Assembly (NCBI GenBank): GCA_965204295.1
Contig: OZ241973.1
Coordinates: 3,437,940 to 3,501,939, forward strand
Direction: 5' to 3'
DNA from: Rhizobiaceae bacterium
GTDB taxonomy: Bacteria > Pseudomonadota > Alphaproteobacteria > Rhizobiales > Rhizobiaceae
DNA: 64,000 nt
Under the pieces are notes generated by a model that worked only from the letters and a program-made list of their open reading frames with translations, was not told the origin of the DNA and did no database searches. A program made the position numbers and the translations under genes. Positions 60,395 through 64,000 of the stretch are shown here, piece after piece (the first letter of the stretch is position 1; every line of letters begins with the position of its first letter).

Positions 60395-61654
60395 TCAGAA
60401 CCGCCGCTCCACGCCCACGGTTACGTTGATGTCGCGCCAGGAATATGCTCTGGCGCGGGACTTCACCCGCTGATACGTGACCGTGGCGTAAGGAGTGAAG
60501 CCGTTCGCCAGGATGATCCGGCTGCTTTCGACGGTCAGCGCTGCTCCGGTCCCCGTCTCGTCAAGACTTTCCACATAGACCGACCCCGCGTTATCGAACA
60601 GCTTCCGTTCGATGAACGCGCTCGGCCTGAGGGTGATCCCCCGGCCAACGTCGAACGCGCCGAACGCGGTCAGGCGGAACCGCTGAAAGGCGTCCGGTTC
60701 GAACTCCGCGTCCTTGTCTTCGAACGCCAGTCGCGCGCCCAGAGAGGCTCTGGGCGAGACAGGGCGCGTGGCCGTCAGGCCGAGGGTCACGGCCTGTCCG
60801 TCCCGGCTGTCATTGCGCCGGTGATCGATATCGTGCCACGCCGAGGAAACGGCCAGCGTCGCCCCGGTGTCATAACGCCGCCCGAACGTGGCGCGGAACC
60901 CGACGCGGTCTTCCCAGCCCGACCCGCTCAGGAAGCGGCGCGACGCCAAAGGCGCGACGGTCAGCGTGGAGCGCGGCCAGATGAACCGCGCGCCGGCCTC
61001 TGCCGTAAGCGTCAGGTCATCGAACCGCGATCCCGGCCCTTCGTCGCCCGCGGCGACGATCCGGGCGAAGCCCAGCGTCCGGCGCTTTGGCCCGGACAAT
61101 CCCGGGAGGTCTCGGCGCAGAGCCGCGCTGAAGGAAAAACGCAGGCCGGGAACTGTCCCGGGGTCGCGATCCAGCGTGAAGGGAAGCGCTCCGCCTCCCA
61201 CATCCAGAAGAAGCGTATCGCTCTCGTAGTCGCGGGTATTGCCCAGTTGCGCGACGGCGACATCCGCATCCCATTCAAAGCCCCGGCGGGAGTCTATCGC
61301 CCGGATGAACGACAGTATGTTCGCGCGCACGGGTTCGGGGATGTCGCCCGAGAGCGCCGAAAGAAATTCCGCGCGGGCGCGGCGCCATTGCCCCGAGTCG
61401 AAATAGGCCCGGGCCAGTTCGAGGCGCACCCGCACGAGGTCGGGATTCCGCGACAGGATATTTGCAAAGATCGCCGCCGCCGCGCGGGGCCGGCCCGCGT
61501 TCAAGAGGGCCAGGCCGGTTTCAAACCGGAGCGCGGTTACCCCGGGTCCGGAATCGACCGATACCGTCCGGGCGGCCTCGCTGCGGGCCGCCACCGGCGA
61601 CGATATGGCCAGGACGGCGCTCAGCAACAGGGCGTAAACCGGACGGGGCATCAT
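60395..61654 (-). CDS. DUF560/Slam-like outer membrane protein (N-terminal TPR region plus C-terminal beta-barrel)
   Basis: Signal peptide, and a TPR-like segment (NPDLVRVRLELARAYFDSGQWRRARAEF...PEPVRANILSFIRAI). This is followed by about 300 aa of alternating beta-strand pattern ending in a terminal Phe. The pattern matches my recollection of the Slam family; no HMM was run. Confidence 0.6.
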   Translation of the reverse strand: MMPRPVYALLLSAVLAISSPVAARSEAARTVSVDSGPGVTALRFETGLALLNAGRPRAAAAIFANILSRNPDLVRVRLELARAYFDSGQWRRARAEFLSALSGDIPEPVRANILSFIRAIDSRRGFEWDADVAVAQLGNTRDYESDTLLLDVGGGALPFTLDRDPGTVPGLRFSFSAALRRDLPGLSGPKRRTLGFARIVAAGDEGPGSRFDDLTLTAEAGARFIWPRSTLTVAPLASRRFLSGSGWEDRVGFRATFGRRYDTGATLAVSSAWHDIDHRRNDSRDGQAVTLGLTATRPVSPRASLGARLAFEDKDAEFEPDAFQRFRLTAFGAFDVGRGITLRPSAFIERKLFDNAGSVYVESLDETGTGAALTVESSRIILANGFTPYATVTYQRVKSRARAYSWRDINVTVGVERRF

Positions 61655-61716
61655 CGGGAGATGTCACAGACGGGGGCCGCTCACCGGTGGTCGGCCCGTC
61701 AATTTGCGGAAGCGGC

Positions 61717-62064
61717 CTACTCCCTAATCGCGCCAAATGCGCCGACGATGTTGTCGCTTTCAAAGATTCCGAGAGCCTCGGCATGGTCCGGTCCGACAAA
61801 ACCGCCCAGGATACTGTTCCCGGGCTGACCGTCCGCAAAGATCCCGTCTTGACCCACCGCAAGATTTTCGAAGTCTATCCTCAATGTCGCATGTGGGCTT
61901 CCGCGATCGAGATCAACGATATCGGTGAAGTGCGCGTCGACCTCGTTGTCGGCGGAGGCGTATATCAGTTCGGCGTCCCCCTGCAGGATGTTGCCGCGAT
62001 GAGCGCCGCCGACCGGCCACAGGCGCTCGGTCTCGGCAATCCAAGGGTTTTGGGAGACGCCGGT
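61717..62064 (-). CDS. TbpB/fHbp-like beta-barrel ORF (115 codons stop-to-stop), no ATG and no N-proximal start codon; status uncertain (fusion, readthrough or pseudogene)
   Basis: Hand translation gives GC3-biased codons and ends ...ILGGFVGPDHAEALGIFESDNIVGAFGAIRE. That matches the G-F-x-GP-x-A-E-x-x-G-x-F ... FGA ending of TbpB-type lipoprotein barrels. This ORF was not in the supplied track. Confidence 0.45.
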   Translation of the reverse strand, partial: TGVSQNPWIAETERLWPVGGAHRGNILQGDAELIYASADNEVDAHFTDIVDLDRGSPHATLRIDFENLAVGQDGIFADGQPGNSILGGFVGPDHAEALGIFESDNIVGAFGAIRE

Positions 62065-62802
62065 TCAGCAGACCGTGCTTTGACATGCCCGGAAGTTGGC
62101 CACTTTTTCGGTCAGAACCGCACGGCCAAGCGCGCCGAACACCACTTCGTCGCCGACCACGTAGGAGGGGGTGCCGGTAATCGACAATTCATTGGCAAGC
62201 TCATAGGTTTTCGCAAACGCCGCCTGAATTTCGGGATTTTGCATCTCCTTGCGAAGGTCCGCCTCACTGGCGCCAAGGTCCACGGCAACGCGCATGGCCT
62301 TTTCCTCGCCGGCCAGGCCTGGCCCGTTGAGCACCTCACGATGGAAATCCGCGTATTTGTCTGGATGCAGGGCGCGGAAGGCCATCGAAACAATATGAGC
62401 CCTTTGCGAATCCGGTCCCAGAATCGGAAACTCTTTCAGGGCAAATCGCAGTTCGGGGTCTTTTCTGACCATCTCATCCATGTCGGCCATGGCGCGTTTG
62501 CAGAAACCGCAATTGTAATCGAAAAACTCCACGACCGTGATCTCGCCATCGGGATTTCCGACGATCCCGTCGTAACCGGCGTTGAATATCTCATTCGCCT
62601 GCTCGGTGATTGTCGCCGTCCGCGCGAGACGTTGTTCCTGCTGCTGTCTGATTTCTAGCGCGGTTTGGGCCGAGGTCAGGGCCGGCGGGTTTGCGCCTGT
62701 CACCACGCCCCGAGCGCGCTCGGCAAAGCCTGGACTGCTGCTACAACCCGACAGGGCGATTCCCGCCGCACAGAAGACGATAAACAACATAATACGAATC
62801 AT
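62065..62802 (-). CDS. DsbA-family thiol:disulfide oxidoreductase lipoprotein
   Basis: Start MIRIMLFIVFCAAGIALSGC (lipobox), thioredoxin motif FDYNCGFCK, and C-terminal GTPSYVVGDE. The tracked ORF start at 62982 looks like an over-extension. Confidence 0.8.
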   Translation of the reverse strand: MIRIMLFIVFCAAGIALSGCSSSPGFAERARGVVTGANPPALTSAQTALEIRQQQEQRLARTATITEQANEIFNAGYDGIVGNPDGEITVVEFFDYNCGFCKRAMADMDEMVRKDPELRFALKEFPILGPDSQRAHIVSMAFRALHPDKYADFHREVLNGPGLAGEEKAMRVAVDLGASEADLRKEMQNPEIQAAFAKTYELANELSITGTPSYVVGDEVVFGALGRAVLTEKVANFRACQSTVC

Positions 62803-62947
62803 GGAAATGTCCCCGTTTTTATTCAGATAAACGCCCACCCCGGCACTCTGCAAGACGATTATGTTGTCCGCAAACCTGTCAAGGAAAAACGCCAGTGCCC
62901 GCCGAATGAAAAAGGGCGCCGCAACGGGCGCCCTTCCCGTCATCCGG

Positions 62948-64000
62948 TTATCGGGGCAGTGTGTCGTCCACGCCCGCGACATAGAAATTCATGCCAAGAA
63001 GCGCGCCGAGGTCGGCCTGTTCGCCTTCCTTGAGCCATTCCGATCCGTCCTGCTTCATGATCGGCCCGGTGAAGGGCTCCAATTCCCCGGAGGCGATCAT
63101 GGCAGTGGTTTCCTCGGCCAGAGCCTTCACGTCGTCCGGCATATTGGTGAATGGCGCCATGACGACATTGCCTTCGGCCAGACCATGCCAGACGTCATGC
63201 TGCTCCCAATCGCCGTCGATCACCGCTTTGACGCGCTCGACGTAATAGGGACCCCAATCGTCGATGATCGCGGTCAGTTGGGTTTCCCTGCCGAAGGCGA
63301 TCATGTCGGACGCCTGACCGAAAGCCTTGACGCCGCGTTCGGCCGCCACCTGCATCGGCGCCGTCGAATCGGTATGCTGCGTGACGATATCGACGCCCTG
63401 GTCGATCAGCGCCTTCGCGGCATCGGCTTCGCGGCCCGGATCGAACCAGGTGTTCGCCCAGACGACTTTCAGCTTGAAGTCGGGGTTGATCGACTGCGCG
63501 CCGAGAATGAACGAATTGATGCCACGCACCACTTCCGGGATCGGGAACGATGCAATGTAGCCGGCCACGCCCGTCGTCGACATTTTCGCCGCGATTTGGC
63601 CCTGGACGTAGCGGCCCTGATAGAATTTCGACGAGTAGGTCGAAACATTCTCATGTTCGCGCTTGTATCCCGTGGCGTGCTCGAATTTCACATCCTTGAA
63701 CTTGCCGGCGACCTTGTTGGTCGCATCCATGTAGCCGAATGAGGTCGTGAAGATAATGTTGCAGCCGGAGCGGGCAAAACGCTCCAGCGCACGCTCCGAA
63801 TCCGCGCCTTCCGGCACACTTTCCAGATACGCCGTTTCCACCGCGTCGCCAAATTCCTTTTCGACATCAAGACGGCCCCGATCATGCTGGTACGACCAGC
63901 CGAAATCGCCGATCGGACCGACATAGATAAAGCACGCCTTCGTCCTGGCTTCGACCGCCCCCGCCGCCATGGCGGCGATTGCCGCCGAAGCCAATAGTGT
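62948..64000 (-). CDS. BMP-family ABC transporter substrate-binding protein (PnrA-like), 5' end at or beyond the window edge
   Basis: IYVGPIGDFGWSYQHD ... YIASFPIPEVVRGINSF motifs of the Bmp/PnrA family. The ORF is open to the window end. Confidence 0.8.
   Translation of the reverse strand, partial: TLLASAAIAAMAAGAVEARTKACFIYVGPIGDFGWSYQHDRGRLDVEKEFGDAVETAYLESVPEGADSERALERFARSGCNIIFTTSFGYMDATNKVAGKFKDVKFEHATGYKREHENVSTYSSKFYQGRYVQGQIAAKMSTTGVAGYIASFPIPEVVRGINSFILGAQSINPDFKLKVVWANTWFDPGREADAAKALIDQGVDIVTQHTDSTAPMQVAAERGVKAFGQASDMIAFGRETQLTAIIDDWGPYYVERVKAVIDGDWEQHDVWHGLAEGNVVMAPFTNMPDDVKALAEETTAMIASGELEPFTGPIMKQDGSEWLKEGEQADLGALLGMNFYVAGVDDTLPR

Follow-up and report, generated by a model that had tools for sequence, protein, structure and literature searches.

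The feature under study lies at positions 61,717 to 62,802 of the window, by which we mean the whole 64,000-nucleotide stretch of a Rhizobiaceae contig (OZ241973.1) that was analysed. It is very probably the product of an ectopic recombination in which a copy of dsbA broke a gene for a Slam-cargo lipoprotein (SLP). The TGA in the middle of the feature is the native stop codon of dsbA, and the barrel sequence beyond it is the headless remainder of the SLP gene. As judged from sequence comparison, the locus is thus a chimeric lipoprotein-DsbA gene followed by a gene remnant. The preliminary description had offered three readings of the same letters, namely a single gene split by a stop codon, readthrough or recoding of the TGA, and a decaying barrel pseudogene. 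The genes of the locus are all on the minus strand, and the features are as follows.

62065..62802, minus strand: chimeric lipoprotein-DsbA ORF, 245 codons plus TGA, recognised by translation and PF01323

62668..62802, minus strand: SLP-derived 5' part with signal peptide, lipobox AGIALSGC and linker up to ...PPALTSAQ

62658..62668, minus strand: 5' junction with the 11-nt microhomology CCAAA(C/T)CGCGC, from a three-way alignment of the SLP gene of L014, the window and the native dsbA of L011

62017..62667, minus strand: dsbA/scsC-derived segment of 651 nt, from codon 70 to the stop plus 48 nt of 3' flank

62065..62067, minus strand: TGA, the native stop of the dsbA donor, placed by the homologs' shared end ...STVC

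62017..62064, minus strand: native dsbA 3' flank of 48 nt, forming codons 1-16 of the "barrel ORF" (TGVSQNPWIAETERLW)

61717..62016, minus strand: SLP remnant, codons 193-291 of 291 (barrel strands 2-8), plus TAG

60395..61654, minus strand: Slam (T11SS) outer-membrane protein, 419 aa, with TPR and DUF560 barrel, intact, recognised by PF04575 and TPR_19

Translation bears out the open reading frames that had been described. The ORF at 62802..62068 begins with MIRIMLFIVFCAAGIALSGC, carries the lipobox LSGC and a CGFC motif, and ends with ACQSTVC directly before the TGA, in frame with the barrel ORF. After the TGA the frame stays open for 115 codons (62064..61720) up to the TAG at 61719..61717. 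This 115-codon frame was said to contain no ATG and to have its first GTG or TTG more than 60 codons in; both statements are correct, the earliest such codon being a TTG at 61884, codon 61. Upstream, a Shine-Dalgarno-like GGGGA lies 7 nt 5' of the ATG at 62802. A promoter scan found nothing, and terminator-like matches are no more numerous than those obtained with shuffled sequence. In Pfam, the chimeric ORF matches the DSBA family PF01323 (E 2.9e-24) and has no match to ScsC_N (PF18312). The 115-codon tail reaches only a sub-threshold match to TbpB_B_D (E 0.077), but its homology to the barrels of intact lipoproteins is clear. The neighbouring Slam at 61654..60395 matches PF04575 SlipAM with 35.9 bits against a cut-off of 22, together with TPR_19.

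Comparison with canonical DsbA proteins identifies the TGA as the ancestral stop of the dsbA donor, neither a recoded codon nor the break point of a fusion. A search with the DsbA ORF returned thousands of relatives, and the close ones are proteins of 267-272 aa from Rhizobiaceae/Mesorhizobium-like bacteria that combine ScsC_N (PF18312) with DSBA. When these sequences are aligned, every canonical homolog terminates at ...C(E/Q)STVC, which is also the end of the window ORF, and the longest of the 120 best homologs listed does not exceed 292 aa. Over its N-terminal ~45 residues, the window ORF does not align with the canonical homologs. At native dsbA loci, the codon that follows ...STVC is TGA in L003-L006 and TAG in L007 and L008, and the same TGA is found at a second assembly locus, L012. 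Because the position of the stop is conserved and some relatives use TAG, the codon represents neither a recent nonsense mutation nor a conserved case of UGA recoding.

The similarity to dsbA is not confined to the protein. In BLASTN, window positions 62667..62017 match L003 4208..4858 over 651 ungapped nucleotides with 97.1% identity. Native dsbA lies in the order RNase E - M48/TPR protease - dsbA - aroQ - accB - accC. The insert is 100% identical over its 651 nt to L011, which encodes the native DsbA P0134, and the chimera shares 200 residues with P0134, all of them identical. The native dsbA DNA of the window genome was itself deduced from the exact protein P0134 and from the Logan contig (L011) that encodes it. 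A scan of species-representative genome contigs with the chimera, in a set to which the window genome does not belong, recovered nothing beyond native dsbA at two loci and a pair of unrelated thioredoxins. The 48 nt past the TGA are identical or nearly identical to the sequence 3' of native dsbA in L003, L004, L005 and L011. Because the dsbA match extends this far beyond the stop, the first 16 "barrel" codons, including the GTCTC..GAGAC repeat, are dsbA 3' flank. In the AF2 model of the 115-aa ORF, the residues encoded by this flank have a pLDDT of 40-46, compared with ~90 for strands 2-8.

The sequences on either side of the insert belong to the SLP gene, and intact alleles of this gene occupy the same locus in sister strains. 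One encodes 339 aa with a PD-repeat linker (L002) and the other 291 aa, counted from MIRIM (L014). The locus has the shared gene order ABC transporter - Bmp - SLP - Slam - BKACE - aminotransferase - LacI. The preliminary description had named an independent, lipobox-bearing barrel gene at orthologous loci as evidence against a fusion, and this is what their alignment reveals, since both alleles carry their own lipobox and no dsbA. On the 5' side, window positions 63000..62658 are 97.4% identical to the L014 allele. Residues 1-46 of the window ORF differ from its product (P0143) by a single substitution and diverge after ...PPALTSAQ, and the N-terminus of the chimera is that of the intact P0143/P0146. 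On the 3' side, the remnant is 92.3% identical to L014 4637..5048. Between these two matches, 431 nt of the SLP gene have been replaced (L014 4206..4636, codons ~49-192), which specify the handle and barrel strand 1. The microhomology at the 5' junction is read in the same frame in the SLP gene and in dsbA. At the 3' junction, the two sequences meet in a blunt join (62017|62016). A 24-mer across the 3' junction was also used to scan metagenome contigs; its sole match, L015, covers 25 nt of an unrelated contig and was put down to chance.

Slam cargo proteins consist of a variable N-terminal domain and an eight-stranded C-terminal barrel (PMC5449769; PMC12282271). The AF2 model of the intact P0143 (pTM 0.80, barrel pLDDT > 90) has this form, in which a handle precedes the eight strands, these being at residues 203-213, 223-232, 237-247, 258-266, 271-276, 279-286, 292-299 and 302-310. 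Foldseek matched this model against the PDB to TbpB, hemophilin/HphA, the LbpB N-lobe, NHBA and fHbp. A search with the intact SLP found 20 relatives only, ranging from 205 to 366 aa. A DsbA domain is present in none of these 20, and PF01298 is recorded in one of them. The window locus shares with Slam cargo the adjacency of a Slam with DUF560 and TPR. Its barrel, however, is incomplete. Because the remnant starts at P0143 residue 213, strand 1 (DATYRGLMVGS, with 7 conserved columns) is absent and strands 2-8 are all that is left. Moreover, lipobox and barrel do not stand on one polypeptide, as the TGA and 48 nt of dsbA flank intervene.

These observations are best explained by the following series of events. 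The ancestral locus would have encoded a 291-aa Slam-cargo lipoprotein, composed of lipobox, linker, beta-rich handle and eight-stranded TbpB-like barrel, directly upstream of Slam. An ectopic recombination in an ancestor shared by the window strain and one sister strain would then have swapped SLP codons ~49-192 for a 651-nt copy of the housekeeping ScsC/DsbA gene that ran from codon 70 to the stop plus 48 nt. The 5' crossover would have used the 11-nt microhomology, while the 3' ends would have been joined bluntly. The new ORF would have taken over the promoter, signal peptide and lipobox of the SLP gene and joined them to the DsbA catalytic domain, with the loss of two thirds of the ScsC_N trimerisation segment. 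Translation would stop at the native dsbA TGA, and the 99 leftover SLP codons, which encode strands 2-8, would form an untranslated remnant that is in frame by chance. Since then, interlocus gene conversion would have kept the insert in each genome free of differences from the native dsbA there. The in-frame relation of the DsbA ORF and the tail, which made a single gene seem plausible, is not beyond what chance can explain. Two coincidences put the tail in the frame of the chimera: the blunt join fell in phase, as it would in one case out of three, and the 16 codons of the G+C-rich flank are free of stops.

The same arrangement is present in a second strain. A contig of 729,957 bp carries a chimera (P0125) together with a native DsbA (P0136), and the native DsbA P0134 (269 aa) is assigned to the contig of the window. 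In the second locus, L012, the synteny, the junctions and the TGA are as in the window, and an open tail of 117 codons follows. Neither insert differs at any of its 651 nt from the corresponding native copy, which is L011, encoding P0134, for the window and L013, on the same contig, for L012. The two genomes differ from each other at 6 sites, and these are the same in the insert and in the native copy. From L003-type alleles, the dsbA tracts of both genomes differ at 19-24 sites, and strains with L003/L005-type dsbA have intact SLPs (P0146, P0141) on the same contigs. The tracts are therefore identical within each genome and different between genomes, as expected of concerted evolution by gene conversion, with the native allele of the window genome deduced from P0134 and L011. 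A single origin followed by interlocus gene conversion is the simplest account of this pattern. An independent origin of the chimera in the two strains was rejected, as they share the blunt 3' junction down to the last base. For an origin of the insert through mRNA, nothing indicates that a transcript ends at position +48. The chimera is known in two strains only and derives from a recent recombination.

The second strain also bears on whether the locus exists as assembled. It is very unlikely that a metagenome assembler mis-joined a dsbA segment into the SLP locus, or that polishing homogenised it. The contigs do come from a strain-rich metagenome assembly (ERZ25068762), and complete identity between insert and native copy is a possible outcome of repeat-confused polishing. 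Such an artefact, however, would have had to produce two base-precise junctions 651 nt apart with the correct SLP locus on either side. It would also have had to produce both of them again in a second contig, where the flanks differ (the remnants are 81.5% identical) and the dsbA allele is that of the contig's own strain. Additionally, the chimeric protein is on record from NCBI and ENA.

The preliminary reading of a decaying barrel pseudogene came close to the present interpretation, but it missed that the DsbA segment is the intruder. What remains of the barrel is part of a gene that is intact at the same locus elsewhere, and it lacks a start codon and a ribosome-binding site. It is presumably not translated. 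Between the window and L012, the remnants have a nucleotide identity of 81.5%, with a dN/dS of 0.93 and a dS of 0.22. In the adjacent Slam, the same two strains are 98% identical, with a dS of 0.037 and a dN/dS of 0.37, and comparison of Slam with that of the sister strains likewise gives 98% nucleotide identity and a dN/dS of 0.26-0.37. The divergence of the remnants fits that of an unconstrained fragment. The frame is nevertheless open in both strains, and the two copies are not equally worn. The L012 remnant has lost 3 of the 32 conserved barrel residues (A->V, H->P and E->V) and gained one codon. Because the window remnant is open and retains all 32 conserved columns, decay is visible in L012 only. 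The remnant dS is about six times that of Slam. This synonymous divergence is in excess of what neutral decay from a single origin would give, and it suggests that the remnant has since exchanged sequence, by recombination or conversion, with other SLP alleles or paralogs. Across strains, the barrel block forms a mosaic.

The remaining alternatives all grant the barrel a product, and each of them is highly improbable. The first holds that DsbA and a Slam-recognised barrel form a single lipoprotein of 361 aa, which would be a new class of Slam cargo, and that the gene was recently interrupted at 62065-62067, either through a nonsense mutation or in appearance through a sequencing error. The two ORFs are indeed in frame with the TGA as the sole stop between them, and a Slam adjoins the locus. 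The proposal fails because the TGA is the ancestral stop of the donor and the 16 codons after it are non-coding dsbA 3' flank. The same TGA is also present in an independent assembly that differs by ~4% across the region. Barrel strand 1 is missing as well, no protein that joins DsbA to a barrel is found among the 20 SLP relatives, and the 120 best DsbA homologs listed all have 292 aa or fewer.

Equally hard to credit is a programmed readthrough of the UGA, with or without selenocysteine, that would yield some full-length DsbA-barrel protein for display by Slam. As far as the idea could be tested, the results refute it. In its favour, the frame after the TGA is open in two strains, an inverted repeat lies downstream, and AF2 models flank-encoded residues 8-17 as a strand, although with a pLDDT of 40-46. 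Native dsbA, however, has the same TGA and the same downstream sequence, and what follows there is aroQ, so that there is nothing to read into. In the relatives L007 and L008 the stop is TAG, and homologs terminate at this position rather than continuing with a Cys or Sec aligned to the UGA. The hairpin that had been proposed stands in part: the GTCTC...GAGAC repeat is present just 3' of the TGA, but it plays no part in the minimum-energy fold. For the 86 nt that surround and follow the TGA, folding is no better than for shuffled sequences (z = -1.05). A search of Rfam gave nothing relevant, its only match being a chance one to Xoo5 (E 0.31). A SECIS-like stem-loop is thus not indicated by the z-score or by Rfam, and the sequence concerned is that of the native dsbA 3' flank. 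No tRNA-Sec was found within the 64-kb window. A match to the NCBIfam thioredoxin-like (seleno)lipoprotein family was rejected as evidence for Sec, as it scores 31.8 bits against a cut-off of 190. Finally, the lost barrel residues in L012 and the dN/dS of 0.93 speak against a protein that is maintained by readthrough.

That the remnant is expressed separately, with a non-canonical start, and serves as a small barrel in the periplasm or as a decoy is scarcely conceivable: its frame is open, the window copy keeps all conserved residues, and gene callers report fragments of 73-131 aa at homologous places, but it has no ATG, no GTG or TTG before codon 61, no signal peptide, no lipobox and no strand 1, and the short proteins elsewhere are truncated calls within full-length SLP ORFs.

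The chimeric protein resulting from the recombination has the DsbA-type thioredoxin fold and a CxxC motif. Its catalytic domain is complete, with CGFC and the cis-Pro loop TGTP in place. The ScsC_N trimerisation domain (PF18312), in contrast, is not present as such, and only its residues 70-80 are kept of a native span of 47-80. The lipobox is followed by Ser at +2. If it is made, the chimera is probably a periplasm-facing lipoprotein oxidoreductase; lacking a barrel, it should not be exported by Slam. DsbA-fold oxidoreductases on an N-terminal lipid anchor, such as DsbA1 and DsbA2 of Neisseria, are familiar; the chimera differs from these in that its lipobox was taken from an unrelated surface-lipoprotein gene. 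The donor resembles the trimeric ScsC and alpha-DsbA-type isomerases PmScsC and CcScsC in combining ScsC_N with a DsbA domain and CxxC (PMC5524982; PMC8900818). In the chimera, however, the N-terminal anchor is replaced by a lipoprotein signal and most of ScsC_N is missing. PmScsC without its N-terminal domain is monomeric; it no longer acts as an isomerase and acquires dithiol-oxidase activity (PMC5524982). Purely by analogy, the chimera might act as a monomeric oxidase on a tether.

It is conceivable, if rather unlikely, that the chimera is more than a by-product and has been selected as a new gene. Such a gene would have captured a promoter, a signal peptide and a lipobox and shed most of the trimerisation segment, would encode a monomeric, membrane-tethered thiol oxidase under the regulation of a cargo gene, and would undergo conversion with its parent. 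Any signal of selection in the chimera is erased by gene conversion. More remote still is a version in which rare UGA readthrough would add the seven-strand tail and Slam would expose some of the protein on the surface.

With the known Slam (T11SS) cargo proteins TbpB, LbpB, HpuA, fHbp and hemophilin/HphA (PMC5449769; PMC12282271), the ancestral gene and its intact alleles share the lipobox, a variable handle, the eight-stranded barrel and the adjacency of Slam. The SLP family described here differs from them in being a small alphaproteobacterial (Rhizobiaceae-like) group of ~20 clusters that is poorly detected by the barrel Pfam model. The cargo gene of the window itself has lost handle and strand 1, and its lipobox is cut off from the barrel by a stop codon and a foreign 3' flank. 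Chimeras formed by illegitimate recombination, followed by gene conversion, have in common with this locus the microhomology and blunt junctions, the retention of the donor copy, and tracts that are identical within a genome only; nothing categorical sets the locus apart from them. The literature on bacterial chimeric genes and gene conversion yielded nothing specific to this case.

An apparent new class of Slam cargo, or an apparent recoding event, is thereby replaced by an ordinary and fully traced explanation. The locus is an unusually well-resolved natural example, with a known donor, an intact allele of the recipient, two resolved junctions and two strains that descend from the event. It offers a record at base resolution of a bacterial domain swap, of the capture of a secretion signal or lipobox by an unrelated enzyme, and of a 651-nt tract homogenised by conversion. 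For annotation, it carries the warning that in G+C-rich DNA a frame that stays open beyond an in-frame stop says little in favour of recoding. Here, gene callers called fragments of the remnant and over-extended the chimera, which they stretched to 292/293 aa (P0005 has 292 aa).

The block encoding the eight-stranded, TbpB-like barrel of the Slam-cargo surface lipoprotein (SLP) differs markedly among strains. Across window positions 61720..62016, L012 5931..6230 (a second assembly with identical chimera junctions) and the intact SLP genes of L002 and L014, nucleotide identity is 80-83% and dS is 0.22-0.31. For the adjoining Slam gene, identity among these strains is 98% and dS is 0.03-0.04. 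The barrel alleles look mosaic, which suggests that recombination or conversion among SLP barrels is frequent. The strains are otherwise nearly identical, with the barrel-coding block as a hot spot of divergence.

In a more distant genome, L001 (a 3.75-Mb contig), the Slam gene is preceded upstream by two SLP paralogs arranged in tandem:

L001 4197..5354, first SLP paralog
L001 5662..6663, second SLP paralog

Their barrels are 97% identical to each other, and non-synonymous changes exceed synonymous ones (dN/dS 1.7, from few sites).

In the sister strain L002, there are two repetitive features:

L002 4024..4287, tandem repeat in the intergenic region between Bmp and SLP
L002 4380..4520, low-complexity linker of SLP

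In one of its frames, the intergenic repeat gives HQTDRVPSNGPGPIKRTGS about 3.5 times. The linker, C-terminal to the lipobox, is (PDPDPM)n. In comparison with L002, the window has neither the intergenic tandem repeat nor the (PDPDPM)n linker.

An open reading frame (ORF) lies antisense to the SLP remnant and most of the chimera:

61462..62658, plus strand, ORF of 398 aa

Such ORFs are typical of G+C-rich DNA, and this one is not evidence for a gene. Within an unrelated G+C-rich ORF of a JGI metagenome contig, 24-25 nt (L015 89..112) are identical to the sequence of the 3′ junction; this is a chance match.

Gene calls at these loci require some care. Both the gene callers and the mechanical list of ORFs lengthen the chimeric gene 5′ across 62803..62982, giving products of 292, 293 or 305 aa. 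The lipoprotein signal peptide and the SD-like motif favour ATG 62802 as the true start. Similar over-extension at the 5′ end affects intact SLP alleles, P0141 and P0143 among them. The barrel-matching proteins of 73-131 aa in the databases (P0001-P0004; L002 5001..5303, L012 6012..6233) are truncated gene calls. Of those whose loci were examined, P0001 and P0002 lie inside full-length SLP ORFs and the rest inside the L012 remnant. A protein-only search is therefore misleading, as it wrongly implies that small barrel proteins form a family that stands alone.
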